IMG/VR virus record: IMGVR_UViG_3300011115_000708
Span: 17,029 to 81,028 of that record
Origin: a virus
Direction: 5' to 3' (one strand)
DNA: 64,000 nucleotides
In this document: positions 20,464-64,000 of the stretch, piece by piece
Layout of the letters: each line of letters begins with the position of its first letter
How positions within the stretch are numbered: position 1 is the stretch's first letter
Position numbers and translations under genes: made by a program
Notes under the pieces: generated by a model
Databases searched by the model: none
The model's input: only the letters and a program-made list of their open reading frames with translations
Told to the model about the DNA's origin: nothing

Positions 20464-21108
20464 ATGAAAAACAATGATCCAAAGGGTGCAATTGGCGACA
20501 CCAAATCACCGCTAGGGCTAATTCCATCCTGCGCGATGGAACAGACAGCGTGGGTACATAAACTTGGAGCCAAGAAATACGGCCCATACAACTGGCGCAA
20601 GACTGGTGTCTGCGCTACTACCTATGTCAATGCCATCATGCGGCATCTCAATGCCTGGAAGGACGGCGAAACACTAGATCCAGAGAGTGGTTTCTCCCAC
20701 CTGGCTCACATTGCCGCATCCTGCAATATCTTGATGGACGCAGACCACTGTGGAACTCTTGACGATGACCGAGACATTACCCCAGACAATCAGGTAGCAT
20801 TCGATGATTTAACTCCTGTGAAGTCGTTGCCAGACGAGATGTACGACTTCATGAAAGAAGGTGATCGTGTCTGTGAAGGTGATGAAGGGTATTCTGATAC
20901 TGGAGACTATTGGTTTGTCACCGCCTTCAAGACTAAGGACAACTACCGAGTTCCGAAAGGAAGAAAGTACCGCCGTATAAAGAATGGTGGATTAGAGAAA
21001 GAAAGCGTGTCTGCAGATGAATGCAAATGCGGTAGAATCAAGATCAAGCATTTCCTTTTAGGAGTAATCTGCGAAGACTGCGAAGTAAAATGGCAAGACC
21101 CATACTAA
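20464..21108 (+). CDS. dATP/dGTP diphosphohydrolase (DUF5664-like)
   Basis: K..LGLIP, GAKKYG.YNWR, A.MRHL..W..GE.LDPESG..HLAH. Confidence 0.85.
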   Translation: MKNNDPKGAIGDTKSPLGLIPSCAMEQTAWVHKLGAKKYGPYNWRKTGVCATTYVNAIMRHLNAWKDGETLDPESGFSHLAHIAASCNILMDADHCGTLDDDRDITPDNQVAFDDLTPVKSLPDEMYDFMKEGDRVCEGDEGYSDTGDYWFVTAFKTKDNYRVPKGRKYRRIKNGGLEKESVSADECKCGRIKIKHFLLGVICEDCEVKWQDPY

Positions 21109-21266
21109 TGAAACACCCATGCTCACTTTGCGGATCAACGAATTGGCCCGATCCAGAATCACTTTGTCCGTTATGCGATGGGCCTGCCGAACCTGGCCCA
21201 GATCCAGATGAGGACTGCCCAGACCACGACTCGCATGACGAAACTATTTATCAAGAAAATATATGA
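21108..21266 (+). CDS. Small Zn-ribbon protein (52 aa)
   Basis: CSLC...CPLC; coupled to neighbours by TAATG and ATGA; not in ORF track. Confidence 0.55.
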   Translation: MKHPCSLCGSTNWPDPESLCPLCDGPAEPGPDPDEDCPDHDSHDETIYQENI

Positions 21267-21574
21267 GTGATACACCAGAAACAGATAATCAATCATTCGT
21301 TGCAGAACATAACCTCGGTAAAGAACTATGCGTCGAGGCGTGGTTTTGTGAAATCATGGAACGCGAACGAGATGCGTGGAAATTGAACTCTCAATCAAAT
21401 CGTGATGAATATCATAGATTGATGATTGAAGTAGATGATCAGAATTTTCTAATTAAGAACATCATCAAATTACTGGAAATACCGGAGAATCTATCTAAGG
21501 CAGAACATGGTGCTAAAATACATAGAACCATCAAAGAACTGCTTGAGATAAAAAAATACTGCAAAGTACCCTAA
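21263..21574 (+). CDS. Hypothetical protein, MSDTPETD family
   Basis: MSDTPETD...MERERD coiled coil. Confidence 0.65.
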   Translation: MSDTPETDNQSFVAEHNLGKELCVEAWFCEIMERERDAWKLNSQSNRDEYHRLMIEVDDQNFLIKNIIKLLEIPENLSKAEHGAKIHRTIKELLEIKKYCKVP

Positions 21575-23266: not shown

Positions 23267-23518
23267 ATGGAAATTGAACTACAAATCTGGAAATCAAAAG
23301 CAGAAGGTTATTTGCAAGACTACCTCGATGCTCTGAAGCGCATGGATAAGATCTCAGCCGATCGCGACCTCTGGAAAGCTGAAGCGACTCGCTGGCGCGA
23401 TATGTATCTCCAGTACGACGAAATGCTGGAGGGACAAGTGCAAGAATCAGTGAACAAGATCAACAAGATCTGGGAAGATCTCAATGAGCTCAAAAAGAAA
23501 GTCGAGGACGAACTGTGA
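23267..23518 (+). CDS. Coiled-coil hypothetical protein
   Basis: WKSKAE...DRD; homologous to 58779-59093. Confidence 0.55.
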   Translation: MEIELQIWKSKAEGYLQDYLDALKRMDKISADRDLWKAEATRWRDMYLQYDEMLEGQVQESVNKINKIWEDLNELKKKVEDEL

Positions 23519-24096
23519 GAATAAACCCAATACACGCGCAGCGTGACCTAGATAAAGTCAAGATGCAGTGGTGTAGGACTTGCAAGACTGATAAGCCTAC
23601 ATCGGCATTCTATAAGTGCCATCGCACCAAGTGCATGGACTGCAAGCGTGAGGAGAAACGACTGAAGCTACGCAACACAGTCAAAGACTTCTGTCACTCA
23701 TGCAGCACATGGAAACCAGAGACATCGTTCGGAGTAAATACCCGAGGTGATGAGCGACTGAAGACCTGCAAGTCATGCACAAAGGCAAAGGATGATCGGA
23801 TGCCAGCAAGCATTAGAGAGATCCAGATTAAGCCACTGCCGGTCATCTCTAAGGAGAATCGATGGCATCTGCACCAAGGTACTGTGACGCTCTTCATCGT
23901 AGGCCCAGGAGAGTTCGCCATGCACAAGTGTTCCGAGCCAGTTTACCGAGGAAAAATTGGCACTCCCGAGGAGCGGGAGATTGCCAAGACCGCGATTGCC
24001 ATGCTCAATGCCGACATCCAGAATAATCTTGACGCTGGGCCGGAAGCAATTCAAGAAACACTCATCAAGGCGAAAGCCAAACATCAAACAAAATGA
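23515..24096 (+). CDS. Multi-CxxC zinc-binding protein
   Basis: Four CxxC pairs; clear homologue of 59277-59933. Confidence 0.7.
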   Translation: MRINPIHAQRDLDKVKMQWCRTCKTDKPTSAFYKCHRTKCMDCKREEKRLKLRNTVKDFCHSCSTWKPETSFGVNTRGDERLKTCKSCTKAKDDRMPASIREIQIKPLPVISKENRWHLHQGTVTLFIVGPGEFAMHKCSEPVYRGKIGTPEEREIAKTAIAMLNADIQNNLDAGPEAIQETLIKAKAKHQTK

Positions 24097-25094
24097 CATG
24101 GATACTACCAAAGCAGTTACACACGTTAGCCTCTGTGCAGGGTACGGAGGCATTGATCTCGGACTCAACAGAGCAATCCCAAATTTACTCACAGTTGCTT
24201 TTAGTGAGATCGAAGCATTCGCCTGTGCAAACTTGGTCTCGAAAATGGAAGCGGGACTCATGGACTGCGCTCCTGTGTGGACGGATCTTAAAAACTTCCC
24301 ATACGAGCAATTTCACGGACGAGTGGACATCCTTTCTGGGGGTTACCCATGTCAGCCATTCTCAGCAGCAGGGAAGCGAGCGGGAGCAGACGACCCAAGA
24401 CACCTCTGGCCTTTTATCGCAGAAGGAATTCGACTTATGCGACCCAAGATGTGCTTCTTCGAGAATGTCGAAGGACACATTACGTTGGGACTCTCCAGCG
24501 TCATCAGCGACTTGGAAGAACTGGGTTACAAGGTGTCGTGGGGAGTATTCAGCGCGGCTGAATGCGGTGCGCCACACCAACGGAAGCGTGTCTTCATCTT
24601 GGCCTACTGCCAGCAGCAGGGATTGGAAGGATTCAGCGGGCATGGCAACCTCGTCAATCAACAAGGATGGATCGGACAGGAACCGGATCGATCAACTGCC
24701 AAGGGCAGTATTTCACGATCATGGGAGGTCGTTAGTTGGGCAGCCGACTGCAATGAGGATGACGAATGCTCAATCTGCGGACTTGAATACGCAGAAGAAT
24801 GCCAATGCTTTGGCCCAACGCAAGACGGCATTGAGTATGAAGAATTCGATGGGGTCTTGTATGGGCGACCAGAACAATTCTGGCCGAGCAGACCAACTCA
24901 GCCACAATTTCCAGGAGAACCACCAAGAGTCAATCAAGCTCAATCCACGTTGGGTAGAGACATTGATGGGACTTCCAGTAGGATGGACACTCCCGAGTTG
25001 TACACAACCTGTGACAATCGAACCGACGAGTTACGATTGCTTGGCAACGGAGTCGTGCCAGCAGTTACCGAGCGAGCATTTAGAACTCTTTTAA
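24093..25094 (+). CDS. Alternative-frame methyltransferase partner (beta chain) carrying motif IX
   Basis: 333-codon stop-free overlap; WPTASSRDWKD, DQLPRAV, LNPRWVETLMGLPVGWT; ATG overlaps the upstream stop. Confidence 0.7.
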   Translation: MTWILPKQLHTLASVQGTEALISDSTEQSQIYSQLLLVRSKHSPVQTWSRKWKRDSWTALLCGRILKTSHTSNFTDEWTSFLGVTHVSHSQQQGSEREQTTQDTSGLLSQKEFDLCDPRCASSRMSKDTLRWDSPASSATWKNWVTRCRGEYSARLNAVRHTNGSVSSSWPTASSRDWKDSAGMATSSINKDGSDRNRIDQLPRAVFHDHGRSLVGQPTAMRMTNAQSADLNTQKNANALAQRKTALSMKNSMGSCMGDQNNSGRADQLSHNFQENHQESIKLNPRWVETLMGLPVGWTLPSCTQPVTIEPTSYDCLATESCQQLPSEHLELF

Positions 25095-25114
25095 CTGAAC
25101 TACTCAATGACTGA
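24098..25114 (+). CDS. C5 cytosine DNA methyltransferase, catalytic (alpha) chain lacking motif IX
   Basis: Motif I LCAGYGG, IV GYPCQPFS, VI ENV, VIII QRKRVF, X LLGNGVVP. Confidence 0.9.
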   Translation: MDTTKAVTHVSLCAGYGGIDLGLNRAIPNLLTVAFSEIEAFACANLVSKMEAGLMDCAPVWTDLKNFPYEQFHGRVDILSGGYPCQPFSAAGKRAGADDPRHLWPFIAEGIRLMRPKMCFFENVEGHITLGLSSVISDLEELGYKVSWGVFSAAECGAPHQRKRVFILAYCQQQGLEGFSGHGNLVNQQGWIGQEPDRSTAKGSISRSWEVVSWAADCNEDDECSICGLEYAEECQCFGPTQDGIEYEEFDGVLYGRPEQFWPSRPTQPQFPGEPPRVNQAQSTLGRDIDGTSSRMDTPELYTTCDNRTDELRLLGNGVVPAVTERAFRTLLTELLND

Positions 25115-25388
25115 ATCACAACTAGAAAAGAAGGTCTGTGCATGGGCCAAGGACTGTGGCATCTCGACGCTAAAGCTCTCTGGGCCAAATGACCGAGGAA
25201 AAGCAGACCGGATGTTCATGAAGCATGGTAAGATCATGTTCTTGGAGTTCAAAGCAGCAGGTAAGAAACCAACTGCACTTCAGCAACGATTCCTCAAGCA
25301 ACGCGTGGACGATGGGTTCGTCGCTGGATGGACTGACGACTATGTTGAGGCAATCGACATCCTCTGCAAATTCTTCCTGTATGAGTGA
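25107..25388 (+). CDS. VRR-NUC nuclease
   Basis: ESQLE...GKADR...FLEFK..GKKPTALQ. Confidence 0.85.
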   Translation: MTESQLEKKVCAWAKDCGISTLKLSGPNDRGKADRMFMKHGKIMFLEFKAAGKKPTALQQRFLKQRVDDGFVAGWTDDYVEAIDILCKFFLYE

Positions 25389-26730
25389 AGATTTCAAACC
25401 ATTCCCATACCAACCTGCGATGGTCGATTGGTGTGTCGATAATTCATCCTCGGCATTGTTCGTATCTCCAGGCAAGGGCAAGACAGTCTGCACACTCGCG
25501 GCGATCGACCGATTGATGCGGTCTGGCGAAAGCCGAGGTGCGCTCATCATCGCCCCGCTGCGCGTCTGCTCGATTACTTGGCCAAACCAAGTCGAGCGTT
25601 GGAACCACTCAAAACGGTTCCGCGTTGCCCACCTGCGGACGAAAGAAGGGATGCAAGCATGGCAAGATGGGTCTGCTGATATCTACCTCATCAACTCCGA
25701 GCAACTGATCGCCAAAGCACCGATCCTGTTCAAGGGCAAGGTGCTGCCAGTAGACACTTTGGTCATCGACGAGTTAAGCCTCGCCAAGAACCCAACTAGC
25801 AAGCGGTTCAAGACGCTGCGGAAGTACCTGCCGATGTTCAAGCAGAGAATCGGGTTGACCGGCACTCCTGTGCCGAACAATTATCTCGACCTGTACGGAC
25901 AGATCCGTCTGCTCGATGACGGCAAGCGACTCGGAAAGTCATTTTCTGAGTACAAGAGTAAGTTCTTTTACCCTGCGGACTATATGGGCTATACCTTCAA
26001 ACTTAGCCCAGGAGCGAAGGAGGAGATCGATGCGCTCCTCAGCGACCTCTGCTTGGTCATCATTGGCGACGAGAGCGACCTTCCAGCATCCTCGGTGGTC
26101 GATGTGCCAGTAACCCTCCCAACAGACGCTAGGAAGGCGTACAGGACGCTTGAGAAGGAGTTGTTGATCGAGATCAAGGACAAGGAGGTTGTCGCCCTCA
26201 CAGCAGCAACCTTGTGCAACAAACTGCTCCAGATCACCGGAGGCGCGGTCTACGACGACGAGAAATCGGTCGTGCCTATCCACACTGCCAAGATCGAGGT
26301 ACTGCGGAAGATCCGCAAGCAGCACAAGGACGAGCCGATCCTCGTCTTGACTGCGTTCAAGCATGAGTCTGCTCGGATCTTGGCTGAGATCGAAGGAGCC
26401 GAGATGTTCGATGAACGCCGGTTGCAGGACTGGCAGGATGGCAAGATCAAGACATGGGTGGCAGACCCTCGTAGTTTGTCACATGGGATCGATGGACTCC
26501 AGAAGTCCGGAAGGATAGCAGTCTGGTTTACGCTGACGTACTCCAACGAGACGTACATCCAGACCAATGCTCGATTGATCCGTACTGGTCAGTCTGCTGA
26601 GACGCTGATCTACCGGCTAACCGCGACCAACACGATCGACGATGCAGTAGCCGAGGCACTGCGGGAGAAGACCAACACGCAGAGCGGTCTGATGAGTGCG
26701 CTCAAGGCACTCCAGACGATGCAGGGATAA
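25381..26730 (+). CDS. SNF2-family helicase
   Basis: PGKGKT, IDELS, LTGTP, HGIDGLQ, QTNARLIRTGQ; ATG at 25381. Confidence 0.9.
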   Translation: MSEDFKPFPYQPAMVDWCVDNSSSALFVSPGKGKTVCTLAAIDRLMRSGESRGALIIAPLRVCSITWPNQVERWNHSKRFRVAHLRTKEGMQAWQDGSADIYLINSEQLIAKAPILFKGKVLPVDTLVIDELSLAKNPTSKRFKTLRKYLPMFKQRIGLTGTPVPNNYLDLYGQIRLLDDGKRLGKSFSEYKSKFFYPADYMGYTFKLSPGAKEEIDALLSDLCLVIIGDESDLPASSVVDVPVTLPTDARKAYRTLEKELLIEIKDKEVVALTAATLCNKLLQITGGAVYDDEKSVVPIHTAKIEVLRKIRKQHKDEPILVLTAFKHESARILAEIEGAEMFDERRLQDWQDGKIKTWVADPRSLSHGIDGLQKSGRIAVWFTLTYSNETYIQTNARLIRTGQSAETLIYRLTATNTIDDAVAEALREKTNTQSGLMSALKALQTMQG

Positions 26731-56477: not shown

Positions 56478-56620
56478 GCATAATTGGAAGAGATCCGATC
56501 CTTACTTACAAGATCACCCAGTTGATCGGCAAACGAGCAGAACGCGCTAGAGTACGCCAACAGCGTATCGATGCTATTCTATCACCACTAGCAACCATCA
56601 AACGCATCCTTGGACTATGA
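56465..56620 (+). CDS. Hypothetical protein (51 aa)
   Basis: Its stop overlaps the ATG that begins repeat copy 2; not in ORF track. Confidence 0.45.
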   Translation: MDTLSIIGRDPILTYKITQLIGKRAERARVRQQRIDAILSPLATIKRILGL

Positions 56621-56771
56621 AACACCCATGCTCACTTTGCGGATCAACGAATTGGCCCGATCCAGAATCACTTTGTCCGTTATGCGATGGGCCTGCCGAA
56701 CCTGGCCCAGATCCAGATGAGGACTGCCCAGACCACGACTCGCATGACGAAACTATTTATCAAGAAAATAT

Positions 56772-57083
56772 ATGAGTGATACACCAGAAACAGATAATCA
56801 ATCATTCGTTGCAGAACATAACCTCGGTAAAGAACTATGCGTCGAGGCGTGGTTTTGTGAAATCATGGAACGCGAACGAGATGCGTGGAAATTGAACTCT
56901 CAATCAAATCGTGATGAATATCATAGATTGATGATTGAAGTAGATGATCAGAATTTTCTAATTAAGAACATCATCAAATTACTGGAAATACCGGAGAATC
57001 TATCTAAGGCAGAACATGGTGCTAAAATACATAGAACCATCAAAGAACTGCTTGAGATAAAAAAATACTGCAAAGTACCCTAA
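56772..57083 (+). CDS. Hypothetical protein, MSDTPETD family (duplicate)
   Basis: Identical to 21263-21574. Confidence 0.65.
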   Translation: MSDTPETDNQSFVAEHNLGKELCVEAWFCEIMERERDAWKLNSQSNRDEYHRLMIEVDDQNFLIKNIIKLLEIPENLSKAEHGAKIHRTIKELLEIKKYCKVP

Positions 57084-58345: not shown

Positions 58346-58738
58346 ATGACTGACAAACAAATAAACCAACGGATCGCGGAAGCGTGTGGGTGGAAATTGA
58401 AATCAAATGGATTAAATCCCATGTGGTCTTGGCAAAATGAATCTCTAACTCACAGAATAAAGTGGGTAGCTAACAAAGAAATGGCTTCTCAAGGAGTATT
58501 GCCAAACTATGTAAACGACCTAAACGCCATGCACGAAGTTCAGAAGGTGCTAACAAATACTCAATGGGGAGTTTATGTTAATTACCTAACTGCTACCACA
58601 AAACATGATTACAGACGAGCGTGTGCTGAGGCATCCGCTCGCCAGAAAGCAGAAGCATTTCTAAAGACATTTGGAGAATGGGAGGAGGAAGCAGAAGAAT
58701 GTTTACAAGACTTCCTCGATTCTTTCAGCATTTGCTGA
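58346..58738 (+). CDS. Phage protein (ABA-sandwich-like), variant C-terminus
   Basis: Identical to the 22837 gene up to 58644, then diverged. Confidence 0.6.
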   Translation: MTDKQINQRIAEACGWKLKSNGLNPMWSWQNESLTHRIKWVANKEMASQGVLPNYVNDLNAMHEVQKVLTNTQWGVYVNYLTATTKHDYRRACAEASARQKAEAFLKTFGEWEEEAEECLQDFLDSFSIC

Positions 58739-58778
58739 AATCGACAAAATCTACAGAACACAAAACGATGGAAACTAA

Positions 58779-59093
58779 ATGAGAACCGTAAAAGAAGAAC
58801 AATTACAAAAGGACGTGAAAGTTTGGAAATCAAGAGCAGAAGCGCATGAGGAAAACTATTTGCAAATGCTCAAGCGTATTGACGACGTTATCGCAGAACG
58901 TGATGAAGCAGTTCGCAGTTGCCATATCTGGCAAAAAGGTCATGGGGTAATTGTAGCTGAACGCAATGCCGCTATTGCGGAGCGCGATAGATTGATAACG
59001 GCCATTGAAATACACAGGGCAAAAGCGTTTCCGCTTACTGGAGAAGATTTTGATCAAGAGCTATGGGGTGAAATTGAAACCACAACCAACTAA
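58779..59093 (+). CDS. Coiled-coil hypothetical protein
   Basis: WKSRAE...ERD. Confidence 0.6.
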   Translation: MRTVKEEQLQKDVKVWKSRAEAHEENYLQMLKRIDDVIAERDEAVRSCHIWQKGHGVIVAERNAAIAERDRLITAIEIHRAKAFPLTGEDFDQELWGEIETTTN

Positions 59094-59094
59094 A

Positions 59095-59280
59095 ATGACT
59101 AAAACTCAATGGTGCAGACGATGCCAGAAGGACAAGCCAGTACGCGAGTTCTACATCTCCCACCGTACTCGGTGCATGCGGTGCATGTCTGAGTGTGCGA
59201 AGGAGCGGCTGTCTGACCCAAAGAAGCGGCAGCAGCAACGTGATCGCTGCAAGAAGAACTACTACGAGAATAAAGAATGA
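59095..59280 (+). CDS. Small Zn-finger protein
   Basis: WCRRC..DKP..EF...CMRC. Confidence 0.6.
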   Translation: MTKTQWCRRCQKDKPVREFYISHRTRCMRCMSECAKERLSDPKKRQQQRDRCKKNYYENKE

Positions 59281-59933
59281 GCAGTCTACAGACAAAACGA
59301 GAATTAGGTAAAATCGGTGAACAATGGTGCAGGACATGCGAGAAGCACAAGCCGATAGTTGCCTTCTACCCATGCCATCGAACGATGTGCATGGACTGCA
59401 AGAAGGCTAAGAAGCGAAAGTCATTGCGTGAATGCGTGAAGGACTTGTGCCATTCATGCGGCAAGTGGAAGCCACAGACACAATTTGACATCAACTCAAG
59501 AGGTGATAGGATAATGAGTACCTGCTCTTTGTGCACCAAGAAGAAAGCTGAAAAGCGCGATATAAAGAAGCAAGCCATCACTACCATATCACTCTATGAA
59601 TTACAGACAGGGCCCCAGGAAGAGATCAAGATTAAGAAGGATTTATGGTATCTCCATAAGGGCACTGTACATCTTTTCATTGTTGGCCCTGGCGAGTTTG
59701 CAATGCATCGTTGTACTGAGCCAGTGTATAGGGGACGTATTGGAACAAAGGAAGAAAGAGAGATTGCAAAGATCGCTATCGAAAAATTAAATGATGATTT
59801 GGCAAATAATTTTGACAAAGGCCCAGAAGTAATTAAGAAAGCTCTTGACGAGGCGAAAGCCGAGTATGCGAAACAACAAACAAACACAAAAAATGAACAG
59901 CACACAAACAGAAGAAGTATTGAAGGCCATTGA
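59277..59933 (+). CDS. Multi-CxxC zinc-binding protein
   Basis: Homologue of 23515-24096 (LFIVGPGEFAMH shared). Confidence 0.7.
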   Translation: MSSLQTKRELGKIGEQWCRTCEKHKPIVAFYPCHRTMCMDCKKAKKRKSLRECVKDLCHSCGKWKPQTQFDINSRGDRIMSTCSLCTKKKAEKRDIKKQAITTISLYELQTGPQEEIKIKKDLWYLHKGTVHLFIVGPGEFAMHRCTEPVYRGRIGTKEEREIAKIAIEKLNDDLANNFDKGPEVIKKALDEAKAEYAKQQTNTKNEQHTNRRSIEGH

Positions 59934-60354
59934 AGACGGACAGATCTTAGTGGATGAAAGCACCAGCCAAGTATTAAATGCGCTCAAAGAGGAGCAGTTG
60001 ATAAATCTGAAACTAAGTGAGACGCTGAAGTCGGTTTCAGATTGCATCAATGGAGCCACAGAAGTGATAAAGCTGGAGTACGCGGCTATCACGACTCTGC
60101 GGACAGCTCTCTTGGCAATTCACCAGCACTACGGATTCTCAAGCAAGTCTCTAATTAAGCTCATTCCAACGGATACAGACGAGGATGAAATTGTAATGGA
60201 GTTTGGAGAGCTCATGGAGAATGCCGAGAATCTTGCAGACAGGGTAGCAAGGGTACTGGGTAAAACCGAGGATGAACGTCCACCGACAATGAAAGAGCTC
60301 GATGAAAGTTGCGGAACTGAGTTCGTGTACGTTGATCAAAGCGAGGATTCCTGA
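59893..60354 (+). CDS. Hypothetical acidic protein
   Basis: ATG after an A/C-rich leader. Confidence 0.55.
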   Translation: MNSTQTEEVLKAIEDGQILVDESTSQVLNALKEEQLINLKLSETLKSVSDCINGATEVIKLEYAAITTLRTALLAIHQHYGFSSKSLIKLIPTDTDEDEIVMEFGELMENAENLADRVARVLGKTEDERPPTMKELDESCGTEFVYVDQSEDS

Positions 60355-60362
60355 TCAAAGAC

Positions 60363-60746
60363 ATGAGCGCCGCCCAGAACAGACCGAATCCGAATCCACT
60401 GGAAGATCCGAACAAGCATCTCATGGCTGCTCTGAAGATCTACTCAGACAATGGAATCTACTTCGGTGATGTTCTGGAGTGGCATCTCATGAATGGCGTG
60501 GTGCATTCCACGACAGACGTGTTTGCGCTTGGATTCCCTTGTGCGCTTAGCGACCCGATGACCGCCCTATCCATGGAGGACAAGAAGGCCGACTGTCTGC
60601 ATTTCACGATGGTGGTCGGCAATATGTTCGATGCAGTGATCGGGTTTGCAGATAGGTTTGACTTCCTGGCGTTCAGACGTGATACTAAGTCCGACTCCAG
60701 AATCAGATTCTACGACTACGGAAAGTTCATGATGAAGATCTCTTGA
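60363..60746 (+). CDS. Hypothetical protein (possible degenerate GNAT fold)
   Basis: WHL.NG.V.ST...F...AFRR...RFY pattern; weak. Confidence 0.5.
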   Translation: MSAAQNRPNPNPLEDPNKHLMAALKIYSDNGIYFGDVLEWHLMNGVVHSTTDVFALGFPCALSDPMTALSMEDKKADCLHFTMVVGNMFDAVIGFADRFDFLAFRRDTKSDSRIRFYDYGKFMMKIS

Positions 60747-60770
60747 GATAACACAGACAGACCAAACAAT

Positions 60771-60899
60771 ATGAAAAAAGGAAATAGCTGCAAAATGATG
60801 GGTGGAAAAATGACCAAGGACTCAAGCTCAAAATCACATGAGAAGGGCGAGTCGAAGGCGATGAAGAAGAAGGAAGCCAAATCTGGACGCAAATCGTAA
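60771..60899 (+). CDS. Small basic peptide (42 aa)
   Basis: K/M/S-rich, HEKGES motif; TAATG coupling; not in ORF track. Confidence 0.55.
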   Translation: MKKGNSCKMMGGKMTKDSSSKSHEKGESKAMKKKEAKSGRKS

Positions 60900-61141
60900 T
60901 GGAGAAGCGATTCAAGAAAGTGGTGACCAACCCAGACACTGGCAGGAGCAAGACTGTCAGATACGGCCAGGCTGGTAAAGCCGCAGACGGCGGTGACAGG
61001 ATTCGTCCTGGAACTGCCAAGGGCGATGCTTACTGCGCCAGGTCTGCCAAGATCAAGGGTGATTGGAAATCAGACCCAAACTCGCCCAACAATCTTTCCA
61101 GACAAAAGTGGAAATGCAACGGAAGCAAATCCATGAAGTGA
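60899..61141 (+). CDS. Small basic conserved phage protein (YCARS family)
   Basis: VRYGQ.G...PGT.KGDAYCARS...NSPN.LSR.KWKC. Confidence 0.75.
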   Translation: MEKRFKKVVTNPDTGRSKTVRYGQAGKAADGGDRIRPGTAKGDAYCARSAKIKGDWKSDPNSPNNLSRQKWKCNGSKSMK

Positions 61142-61243
61142 CATAAAAAATTTCCTGCAACGATGGGTGTTGTTGCAGGGGTGTTGGTGATGCAAGAAGG
61201 CCGATGAGTGTGTTGCTCATCGGCCTTCAACTTTGTCTGCGTA

Positions 61244-61468
61244 TCAGAGGTTGCGCCAACCGTGTTGCCTCACGGCCACTCTACCACCAGAGAGTCGGCG
61301 GGTGGATACGATAGCTGTGCAAAGGTGGCCACAGCAGTCGTGCTCACACCCACAGCGCCACCGAAATCGGTCTTCGATGTCCTCGTCCGATGGATGGCCG
61401 TACACGATGTGGAATTGTCTGAAGGACTCTCCGTCTGAATCCCATCTAGCTTGCTTTGATGTTGTCAT
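61244..61468 (-). CDS. Small Cys-rich protein
   Basis: CGCEHDCCGH motif. Confidence 0.55.
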   Translation of the reverse strand: MTTSKQARWDSDGESFRQFHIVYGHPSDEDIEDRFRWRCGCEHDCCGHLCTAIVSTRRLSGGRVAVRQHGWRNL

Positions 61469-61480
61469 ATTGGGTTGATT

Positions 61481-61636
61481 TTATGCCATCACCTCATGCG
61501 AGGATGGATTGATGATGCGGATGAGATAGGCGATCACCATCTCTGGCGTGTCGTCTCCAAGTGGATGCATTCCTGTCTGGCCTTCCATGTGGTAGGTGAT
61601 CCAGCCGTTTTCGATTCGTAGTACTAGGTGCTTCAT
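61481..61636 (-). CDS. Hypothetical protein (51 aa)
   Basis: ATG after a (CCAAA)n leader. Confidence 0.5.
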   Translation of the reverse strand: MKHLVLRIENGWITYHMEGQTGMHPLGDDTPEMVIAYLIRIINPSSHEVMA

Positions 61637-61661
61637 TTTGTTTGGTTTGGTTTTTGGGAGA

Positions 61662-62462
61662 TCAAATTCCAACTTCCGAGAGCGCCGCCTTCTTGGCAAG
61701 CCTCGCAGCCTTCTTGGTGATGTAGCGAGCCGCATTGAGTTCGCGCTTCCGCTCCTTCGTGAGGCGCTGGGTGGTGGTCTTTGGCAATGACATGCCCCTG
61801 CCGTCTGGTGGGCATCCTGCGGCCTCCCAGCGCTTCTTGCGGTTCGCCTTGCGAGCCTTGGCAATCCGCATCTTGTTGGCAAGGTAGTAGGCACGGGAGT
61901 ACTTGCCATCTGAGTTGTTGGCTGCCTGCCACCGCTTGGATGCCTCACGCTTCTTCTGGAGGCGCTCTTCCTCGGTGGCCGCAGACCGCTCGACCACCCG
62001 CTTCAGCCGCGCATGCACCTTAGCGCGATATTCGGGATTCGATTCCATTTTTTTCTTGTGATGGCGCTTGGCTGCCTCCGCGCTCTGCTTGCGGTAATCA
62101 GACAGCCGCTGCTTCGTCCCCCAGTACTCACCACCGACGAAGCGGCGGTTGTACTGGATGAAGAAGATGCCATCGCGGTCTGGGTGTGGGAAGCCCGACC
62201 TGAGCTTCAACTCTGGCCGCGCCTTGAACATGGCCATGATCTCAGACCATTCTTCTGGGCTGAACTTCTTGTGCGCCGCCAGGCGGAAACATCCCTGGCC
62301 GCTCTCGGCCATCACCCTTGCAGTCTGCAGACGGCGCTCGGATGGTGGAAGGGCCGACTGGGGCAACGGGGCCGCTGGCATCGGTTGCTGAAGCCACTTG
62401 GGCAGTGGTACTGGTGGTTTCTCGTTCATATCTTGGTTCGTTTCGTTCATATTTTTGTTCAT
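61662..62462 (-). CDS. Basic putative DNA-binding protein
   Basis: Arg/Lys-rich helical repeats like HNH N-terminal arms; no HNH motif. Confidence 0.55.
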   Translation of the reverse strand: MNKNMNETNQDMNEKPPVPLPKWLQQPMPAAPLPQSALPPSERRLQTARVMAESGQGCFRLAAHKKFSPEEWSEIMAMFKARPELKLRSGFPHPDRDGIFFIQYNRRFVGGEYWGTKQRLSDYRKQSAEAAKRHHKKKMESNPEYRAKVHARLKRVVERSAATEEERLQKKREASKRWQAANNSDGKYSRAYYLANKMRIAKARKANRKKRWEAAGCPPDGRGMSLPKTTTQRLTKERKRELNAARYITKKAARLAKKAALSEVGI

Positions 62463-63031
62463 TTCTAATACATTCTGGTTTGCGGAAGGTGCTTATTTGT
62501 CTCAAAGCGTGTTGAGGAAACGGCGGAATGGTCGAAATAGCACCTGTCGCTAAATTGCATGGTATTTGGGTTATTTAGACAAAACAAGCGAAATTTTGAG
62601 AAAAGATTTTTCCCATATAAACAAAGGGATTGCGGGGAAAAATGGTGGATCTAATGGAAATTCGTGACATAGCACGCGAGTGACCATGTTATGTTCCAAG
62701 AATCTAATACAAAAAAAAGAGGGTGAGGAAGTCGTGGTTTTTAAGCGAGTTATGACTTGGTTTTAGGAAAAAAAGCGGGAGGATTCTATAAGGTAGTAAA
62801 TAGGTAGAACCTTTATTTCCTACTCACTTCCTCCTTCCTCCGTCAGAAGGAAAGCTCCAATCCCCCTGACGGGGGGAGCATCCTCTGAACGGGAAGGTAG
62901 GCAGACACCGAGGCCCGACCCCAGCACCACCACGCGCAGCGAATGAGAAAAAAAAGGGCGCAGGGTTTTTGATGTTCACGAAACAGATTTCGTCAACATA
63001 CCTGCATCACGATACGGTAAGGAAAAAGATT

Positions 63032-63644
63032 GATAGCGCGGAGAGCATCGGTCATGGTCGGCTCAGACATGAAAGCAATAGCGCGGAGAGCGAAGGGGGC
63101 GGCCAAGGGGGAGACAGCGGGAGCGGCGCAGCCGCGAGCAAGAGCAGGCGCTGCGAAGCAGGCAAAGGCAGACGGGGATGGCGCTGCGAAGCAGGGAGAC
63201 AGGCAGGGAGCTAAGCAGGGAGCTAAGCGGTCGCATCTTGAGCTGAAGTGGATCGGTCTGTGGGATGAGCTCGGTGGGCCAGAACTGCAGGAGGAGGTGA
63301 AGTTTCACGCAACGCGGAAGTGGAGGGCGGACTTTGCCCATGAGGGGGCGAAGGTGTTGATCGAGATCGAGGGCGGGGCGTGGGGTGGCAGACACACCAG
63401 GGGCGGGGGTTTCACGGCAGACCTGGAGAAGTACCTGGCTGCGTTCCTAGACGGTTGGTCTGTGGTGAGGATCGGTGCTGGACAGATCAACTCGGTGGTG
63501 GTGCAGGCGGTGATCAAGCAGGTGAGGATGAGGATGGGCGTGAGGGTGGGGGCTGGGATGGCGGTGGGTGATAGCGCGGAGAGCGTGAGCCGTGGCGGCA
63601 GCGGTGAGGATAGCGCGGAGAGCGTAGCGGATAGCGCCGAGAGC
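63032..63644 (+). repeat. Five dispersed copies of (G)ATAGCGCGGAGAGC
   Basis: At 63032, 63078, 63570, 63609 and 63630 (last with one mismatch). Confidence 0.85.
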
Positions 63645-63662
63645 GTGGAGTGGCTGCGGTGA
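63069..63662 (+). CDS. PD-(D/E)xK endonuclease (DUF559/Vsr-like)
   Basis: E..FH..RKWRADFA....LIEIEGG.W..RH.RG.G...D.EKY..A...GW.V.R. Confidence 0.8.
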   Translation: MKAIARRAKGAAKGETAGAAQPRARAGAAKQAKADGDGAAKQGDRQGAKQGAKRSHLELKWIGLWDELGGPELQEEVKFHATRKWRADFAHEGAKVLIEIEGGAWGGRHTRGGGFTADLEKYLAAFLDGWSVVRIGAGQINSVVVQAVIKQVRMRMGVRVGAGMAVGDSAESVSRGGSGEDSAESVADSAESVEWLR

Positions 63663-64000
63663 AATTTTTTTGATTTTTTTTCGTTTTTTTTCGACCGTCG
63701 ATTTTTTCTGGTTTTACCTCCAGCCTGTCTGCGCTCGTCGGCCTCGGCGGTCGGATCGGGTGGATCGGGCGGGTTGTGGGGCGATGATCGGGGCGGATGG
63801 GGCCGTGCTGGCGCTGGGCGGTGTCTGTGAGCTCGTCTGGCGGCCTGTCTGGGGCTGGACAGCGGAAATGGTTTGCGGCCTGCCTGAGGGCCGTTTGCGG
63901 CGCAAAAAAAGGGAGGCCGTTTCGGGCCTCCCTTTGATGGGATGGGGGGATCGGGCCGTCAGTATCGGCCTCGGGCCGTGGCGGTGAGCCAAGCGGTGGC

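Follow-up and report, generated by a model that had tools for sequence, protein, structure and literature searches.

A probable two-chain phage DNA cytosine-5 methyltransferase encoded by two co-extensive frames of a single gene

The IMG/VR virus record IMGVR_UViG_3300011115_000708 is an 81-kb contig, of which bases 17029-81028 (64,000 nucleotides (nt), hereafter the window) were analysed. In the window, one stretch of 1 kb is open in two frames of the same strand, and it probably encodes a DNA cytosine-5 (C5) methyltransferase made of two chains, alpha and beta, which are written in two co-extensive frames. Frame A, for the alpha chain, has 338 codons. Frame B, for the beta chain, has 333 codons and is +1 relative to A, while the third frame of the same strand has many stops. 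A preliminary description of this DNA had reported two ATG codons 5 nt apart, the first overlapping the TGA of the upstream open reading frame (ORF), which open ORFs of 333 and 338 amino acids; these coordinates are confirmed (Table 1). Beta starts 5 nt 5' of alpha and ends 20 nt before the alpha stop, so it is not a gene nested wholly within alpha. Of the C5 methyltransferase motifs, I, IV, VI, VIII and X are present in alpha, and a segment resembling motif IX is found in beta. Both frames are conserved open among relatives, both have start codons of their own, and purifying selection acts on them in complementary stretches. For these reasons we favour a heterodimer over a single frameshifted product, the two outcomes that the preliminary description had left side by side.

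Relatives were taken from IMG/VR and from a metagenome scan, which gave 110 complete, non-identical genes. Frame B is open from the start of A in all 110, and in 108 of them it runs on to no more than 140 nt from the A stop, in agreement with the proposal that the second frame spans the whole gene. The mean number of in-gene stops over these relatives is 1.75 in the +1 frame, all of them near its end, versus 16.8 in the +2 frame. For 55 loci, which are the window gene and 54 relatives, the positions of both motifs could be established. At these loci, frame B is open over the catalytic half in 54, the sole exception being Paenibacillus phage Shelly, in which it begins inside A, and in the variable half frame A is free of stops in all 55. 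An interruption of B in the motif IX region of homologues had been named in advance as the observation that would speak against the proposal; B is open through motif IX at 55 of 55 loci.

The openness of the two frames was compared with that of synonymous-codon shuffles of the window gene, in which each protein and its codon usage are preserved. In the catalytic half 4.3 stops were expected in B (P of an open frame = 0.001), and in the variable half 5.7 stops were expected in A (P < 0.0005). These shuffles and the +2 frame control rule out chance or composition as the cause of the double openness. One could still suppose that frame B is untranslated and that its openness is a by-product of composition or codon usage, or the relic of an ancestral frameshift. 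Part of the conservation of B is indeed a mechanical shadow of the conserved alpha motifs, and beta has no Pfam match. However, the +2 frame of the same genes is full of stops, the shuffles almost never leave B open, and the B ATG is conserved. Moreover, at the WPT module and at motif IX the sites that vary are B third positions, which places B under current purifying selection there. An untranslated frame B is therefore most improbable.

The same plan, always with B = A+1, is found in eight GenBank phages whose hosts belong to different phyla: phage C75C1, Tunturiibacter phage Tunturi_1, Klebsiella phage 2 LV-2017, Erythrobacter phage vB_EliS_R6L, Rhodobacter phage RcMcDreamy, Lacticaseibacillus phage R9.1, Synechococcus phage Yong-M2-251 and Paenibacillus phage Shelly. 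A sequencing or assembly frameshift is ruled out by the occurrence of one frame plan in these eight phages and in 110 independent genes. Their annotations conflict. Only frame A is annotated in C75C1 and only frame B in Tunturi_1, both as 'DNA methyltransferase'; the Erythrobacter phage R6L entry is a 128-amino-acid fragment, and frame A of the Lacticaseibacillus phage R9.1 is a 'hypothetical protein'. Among the eight, both frames are annotated only in Shelly.

Which frame is selected changes along the gene. In an alignment of 52 sequences the first junction is sharp: through the strand that follows motif VIII the variable sites are third positions of A, and from the WPT codons onward they are third positions of B, with an overlap of about 8 nt in which both readings are conserved. 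At the 3' junction, B third positions are variable through motif IX, and about 30 nt later the variable sites are again A third positions. A finer map (Table 1) was made from the close relatives of the window gene, which are L003, L090 and the partial loci L091, L102 and L120. In the bins of 24728-24862 there are 11, 4 and 14 changes at third positions of A, versus 0, 1 and 3 at its first positions. In those of 24908-24997, third positions of B have 9 and 10 changes, versus 5 and 1 for third positions of A. Within the motif IX-like segment, 10 of the 13 differences between the window gene and L003 fall on B third positions. Selection thus alternates in the order A-B-A-B-A, with four frame switches along the gene.

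In the 5' part of the gene both frames appear to be constrained at once. Over the 52 sequences, the mean diversity of A fourfold sites is 0.19 in codons 1-80 versus 0.48 in codons 81-135 (Mann-Whitney p 6.5e-5), and several fourfold columns of codons 1-80 are invariant. At codon positions 1 and 2 the two stretches are alike in diversity (0.116 versus 0.124). If A alone mattered, these fourfold sites would be free to vary; those that are frozen correspond to second positions of conserved B residues, and the simplest reading of their deficit is purifying selection on the beta N-terminus as well. Recent spread by recombination was considered as a cause of the frozen sites and was ruled out, since the deficit is confined to synonymous sites. 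The N-terminal 80 residues of B are also strongly conserved in an alignment of 121 B proteins. The gene may be a case of true double coding on the kilobase scale, in which selection for two proteins acts on at least some 240 nt of the 5' end and some 140 nt in the motif VIII region, and recognition modules can be written in either frame; the odds of this broader proposal seem to us a little short of even.

The alternation of the selected frame also bears on the second outcome left open by the preliminary description, namely that programmed ribosomal frameshifting or transcriptional slippage joins A and B into a single-chain methyltransferase. The constant spacing of the motifs resembles that of single-chain enzymes: from motif VIII in A to the WPT module in B it is 10 nt wherever the pattern caught the first module (23 of the 55 loci), and from motif IX in B to motif X in A it is 56 nt in 54 of the 55. 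Single-frame relatives exist as well. However, because the selected frame switches four times, four shifts would be needed. The heptamer X_XXY_YYZ is absent from the B-to-A junction in 54 of 54 loci, homopolymer runs are found at none of the junctions of the window gene, and inspection of the +1 junction by eye revealed no slippery site. Frameshifting requires neither an open B in the catalytic half, nor an open A in the variable half, nor a conserved B start, and all three are seen. In a frameshift gene the second frame is expected only downstream and without a start of its own; here B has a conserved 5' ATG and is open throughout. Given the four switches and the lack of a slippery site, a frameshifted product is very unlikely, and the heterodimer is the part of the earlier proposal that gains support.

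The alpha chain can be described as a large catalytic domain followed by a variable region and a motif X helix. It matches Pfam PF00145 with an E value of 2.1e-37 over residues 9-177 only, which correspond to positions 3-168 of the 324 positions of the profile. This match spans motifs I to VIII, and motif X, GNGVVP, lies outside it at residues 316-321. The preliminary description of this frame, with motifs I, IV, VI, VIII and X and without motif IX, is borne out. The alignment of alpha to M.HhaI and M.HaeIII covers the same part as the Pfam match. Residues P84-C85-Q86 of motif IV and G316-P321 of motif X are invariant across 109 alpha homologues. The database search with frame A returned at least 7760 matches, and PF00145 is present in all 120 examined among the matches listed. 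An AlphaFold model built with the 109 homologues has a mean predicted local distance difference test score (pLDDT) of 73.4. It is confident at residues 1-178 and 316-338, moderate (66-80) at residues 211-260, which are the Cys module, and below 50 at residues 180-206, the counterpart of the beta WPT module, and at residues 278-315. These two low-confidence stretches are those in which B is the selected frame. Foldseek searches with the model gave M.HhaI structures as the best PDB matches (E 4.9e-12), over the 172 columns of the large domain only.

The acidic Cys cluster that had been noticed in the variable region of alpha proves to be a conserved A-frame module. It is conserved in the alpha homologues P0128-P0143, P0146 and P0147, most of which have the five cysteines, and it probably binds zinc. 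At the same site P0144 and P0182 have other Cys-rich modules with CxxC pairs, and P0145 has none. In most other relatives, B-frame WxTP modules stand in place of the alpha Cys module.

The beta chain carries the WPT module and the motif IX-like segment at the places reported in the preliminary description. In the alignment of 121 B proteins, residues L283, N284, R286, W287, E289, G293, G297 and W298 of the motif IX-like segment are invariant. The WPT module is 52% identical to the frame B protein of Tunturi_1. Frame B matches 2053 database proteins at E <= 1e-3, many of them across 99% of the beta length, and an exhaustive search gave 4517 cluster representatives at E <= 1e-3, with 1674 of them at E <= 1e-10. 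The majority of alignments among the matches listed begin at residues 1-3 of both proteins, and none of 120 among the matches listed has a Pfam domain. In PHROGs, beta matches phrog_1008, annotated 'DNA methyltransferase', with an E value of 6.8e-16. When the beta profile was compared by hhalign with the single-chain methylase of mycobacteriophage A1SD1, the motif IX-like segments of the two were aligned (E 8.9e-4, 17 columns, probability 23%); the same comparison with Tweety gp72 gave only a meaningless alignment of the tails. In the AlphaFold model of beta, built with 121 sequences, residues 1-83 are modelled as helices (pLDDT 59-72), residues 135-162 as a helix (74-89) and residues 187-197 as a hairpin (70-81), the confident stretch being given as 181-200. 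The stretches in which A is selected have low confidence, and the confidence of the two models, alpha and beta, is largely complementary.

Several results weigh against a two-chain enzyme. Pfam searches of beta and of its fragments returned nothing, even at E 10, and the beta profile has no match at E 10 among PDB sequences. The assignment of motif IX in beta consists of a pattern and one weak profile alignment, that with the A1SD1 protein. The beta chain alone gave a poor AlphaFold model: the mean pLDDT is 54.6, with values below 50 in the motif IX stretch. Values this low would be expected of a segment packed on alpha, but they are not in themselves evidence of the packing. Furthermore, the window gene, like L003, has no Shine-Dalgarno-like sequence before its twin starts.

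Another explanation is that alpha alone is active and uses the Cys module for recognition, while beta is translated as a protein with an accessory or separate role, for instance a specificity modifier, a regulator or an anti-defence factor. It would account for the conserved, folded module that alpha retains in its variable region, and for the constrained N-terminal 80 residues of beta, which have no counterpart in known methyltransferases. However, alpha lacks motif IX, a part of every canonical C5 enzyme, and the corresponding segment, which lies in beta here, sits in the catalytic frame of single-chain relatives. In M.EcoHK31I, the alpha chain alone is reported to have given no in vivo methylation after removal of the beta start codons (PMC2836561). 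We consider this explanation unlikely.

M.EcoHK31I, from E. coli HK31 with the target YGGCCR, is the known system closest to the proposed two-chain enzyme. It is a C5 methyltransferase of two polypeptides, described by Lee, Kam and Shaw in 1995, in which beta is encoded in another frame inside the alpha gene, on the same strand; alpha carries motifs I-VIII, motif X and the predicted recognition domain, beta has motif IX, and alpha alone was inactive in vivo once the beta start codons were removed (PMC2836561, PMC3404938). Set against this enzyme, the window gene is alike in having beta on the same strand in the other frame of the alpha gene, an arrangement kept in 110 of 110 relatives, in having part of the variable or recognition region on alpha, and in having the motif IX-like segment in beta and the other motifs in alpha, the identity of motif IX being that given by the pattern and the hhalign E value above. 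It differs in four respects. The M.EcoHK31I beta lies wholly within alpha, whereas the window beta is co-extensive with it, with 333 versus 338 codons. The window beta shares a twin start with alpha, its ATG being 5 nt upstream. It adds the WPT module and a constrained N-terminal part of 80 residues, the two beta chains being likened here by their descriptions. Finally, selection in the window gene switches frame four times.

Other C5 enzymes differ from the window gene in how the parts are distributed. The canonical single-chain enzymes M.HhaI and M.HaeIII (PF00145) share with alpha motifs I, IV, VI, VIII and X and the fold of the large domain; however, neither window chain on its own has both a recognition lobe and motif IX, and the Pfam match of alpha covers only the first half of the profile. 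M.AquI is a C5 methyltransferase of two subunits whose chains must associate, as is proposed for the window enzyme; its motifs IX and X are together on the smaller subunit, whereas the window gene has motif X on alpha and overlapping frames of one gene (PMC3404938). Paenibacillus larvae phage Shelly has the same alpha/beta layout and frame offset in gp55/gp56, and both ORFs are annotated as DNA methyltransferase, with the GenBank note 'g55 internal gene'. Unlike in the window gene, beta of Shelly starts 184 nt inside alpha. The papers on Paenibacillus phages that were examined list the genes and pass over the overlapping arrangement, and our literature searches found no description of a co-extensive two-frame layout.

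Mycobacteriophages A1SD1 (gp80) and Tweety (gp72) encode single-chain relatives. Like the window gene, they have a motif IX-like segment followed by GNGVVP, and modules of the LLPTP type. They differ in that the essential parts are all in one frame, and the +1 frame is interrupted by 7 and 11 stops, respectively. In A1SD1 (L170, locus 271-1137), the +1 frame is open for about 108 codons, 104 of them from its ATG, and this stretch carries one LLPTP-type module directly after motif VIII; modules may thus be divided between the frames differently in different lineages. In Tweety (L171, locus 289-1401), the +1 frame after motif VIII comprises two modules of the LLPTP/MPTP type and then a stop, which falls exactly where the LLPTP module of the catalytic frame begins, a pattern that looks like a record of past frame changes in the variable region. 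A separate observation concerns loci L003-L082, in which the catalytic half is 92-97% identical in DNA between loci with non-homologous flanking genes, and the variable halves differ at 30-60% of residues. The methyltransferase gene seems, from such comparisons, to move as a cassette whose recognition half is reshuffled.

Every one of the 70 related loci that were scored has a B-frame ATG at a distance of 2, 5 or 8 nt 5' of the A start. The twin starts take three forms, ATGTGG, ATGACATGG and ATGGACACATGG, and they are often preceded by a single Shine-Dalgarno-like stretch. In the window gene and in L003 the stop of the upstream ORF overlaps the B ATG, which suggests translational coupling from that ORF, with re-initiation into either frame.

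Based on these results, a model of the two-chain enzyme can be proposed. Ribosomes arriving by coupling from the upstream ORF would start at ATG 24093 (B) or at ATG 24098 (A), so that both frames would be translated. Frame A would give an alpha chain with the large domain for S-adenosylmethionine (AdoMet) binding and catalysis (motifs I-VIII), the small Cys module, the WPSRP-to-EPPRV segment and the motif X helix, and two of its linker loops would be a mere out-of-frame shadow of conserved beta parts. Frame B would give a beta chain made up of an N-terminal part, helical and constrained, then the WPT module and then motif IX, these being separated by shadows of the conserved parts of alpha. 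As has been demonstrated by experiment for M.EcoHK31I, alpha and beta would associate into one enzyme to which beta contributes motif IX and part of the DNA-recognition lobe. We infer that this enzyme is active as a methyltransferase, on a target sequence for which a candidate is given below. The split is not simply one between a catalytic and a recognition chain, since alpha has its own Cys module and the beta N-terminus is constrained.

Table 1 Window coordinates of the two frames, of their motifs and modules, and of the stretches in which each frame is selected.
Feature	Position	Strand	Remarks
Upstream ORF, 193 amino acids, Cys-rich, no Pfam match	23515-24096	+	stop overlaps B start
Frame A ORF, alpha chain, 338 amino acids	24098-25114	+	large catalytic domain, Cys module and motif X
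Frame B ORF, beta chain, 333 amino acids	24093-25094	+	
Twin start ATGACATG	24093-24100	+	B ATG 24093, A ATG 24098, upstream TGA 24094-24096
Putative first doubly constrained stretch	24093-24341	+	alpha motifs I-III over beta residues 1-83; fourfold-site diversity
Alpha motif I (AdoMet binding), residues 12-22	24131-24163	+	C13, G15, Y16 and G18 invariant
Alpha motif IV, catalytic Cys	24338-24364	+	P84-C85-Q86
Alpha motif VI	24455-24475	+	E122-N123-V124
Putative second doubly constrained stretch	24495-24637	+	alpha motif VIII region over beta helix 135-162 and start of WPT module
Alpha motif VIII	24575-24604	+	Q161-R162-K163-R164 and next strand
Beta WPT module, residues 170-206	24600-24710	+	selected in B
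Alpha Cys module (Cys 218, 224, 227, 235, 237)	24728-24880	+	selected in A
Alpha WPSRP-to-EPPRV motif, residues 262-278	24881-24931	+	A-frame conservation; near-invariant in 109 alpha homologues
Beta motif IX-like segment, residues 282-299	24936-24989	+	selected in B
Alpha motif X and flanks	25028-25060	+	G316-N317-G318-V319-V320-P321; pLDDT 93-95
Selected frame A	24098-24502		catalytic half, motifs I-VI
Hardly any change in any codon phase	24503-24637		motif VIII region and beta helix (5-6 close relatives)
Selected frame B	about 24640-24727		WPT module
Selected frame A	24728-24907		Cys module and WPSRP-to-EPPRV segment
Selected frame B	24908-24997		motif IX
Mixed	24998-25042		between motifs IX and X
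Selected frame A	25043-25114		motif X

The methyltransferase gene lies in a replication/recombination block, 5' of a gene for an SNF2-type helicase. The upstream ORF of 193 amino acids (23515-24096) has many CxxC pairs and no Pfam match. Downstream, an ORF of 93 amino acids (25107-25388) and the helicase ORF of 501 amino acids (25225-26730) overlap by 164 nt in different frames. In the 501-residue ORF the start of the SNF2 domain is near residue 58, so the true helicase start may be further downstream. The window sequence is found in a viral metagenome, and partial word matches to it occur in metagenomes of rivers and lakes; among the RNA runs searched for it, none contains it.

An exact direct repeat of 300 nt (100% identity) is present at 21108-21407 and 56617-56916, with a distance of 35,509 bases from start to start, and it flanks both sides of the segment that holds the methyltransferase. 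With this repeat on both sides, chimeric assembly of the record is possible, as is the nesting of one phage within another. The tetranucleotide CCGG is distributed unevenly over the window. In the outer 26.5 kb (1-21107 and 58645-64000) it occurs 0 times versus about 56 expected from a Markov model, and in the inner 37.5 kb (21108-58644), which contains the methyltransferase, 75 times versus 88 expected. No other 4-base palindrome is depleted in this way. CCGG is a candidate for the target of the methyltransferase, if both parts of the record share a host with a CCGG-cutting enzyme.

To our knowledge, bacteria and phages very rarely have same-strand overlaps of kilobase size in which both frames are conserved and under selection. 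The present family is large. If the proposed reading is true, the variable region is a mosaic of recognition modules, with the Cys module of frame A here and WxTP modules of frame B in relatives, and specificity would evolve as modules are exchanged between the two chains of a single enzyme. In that case the first 80 residues of beta would represent a new domain that arose within the AdoMet-binding region of alpha, perhaps a handle that keeps the two chains together. With at least 7760 matches for the alpha frame and 4517 cluster representatives for the beta frame, the overlap is found in thousands of phage genes, and since gene callers retain one frame, half of the enzyme would be absent or mislabelled in nearly every genome record, which would affect predictions of phage methylation and of the evasion of host restriction. 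The locus would also offer a natural system for the co-evolution of two proteins on one DNA sequence, and a natural split methyltransferase that could be used for engineering.

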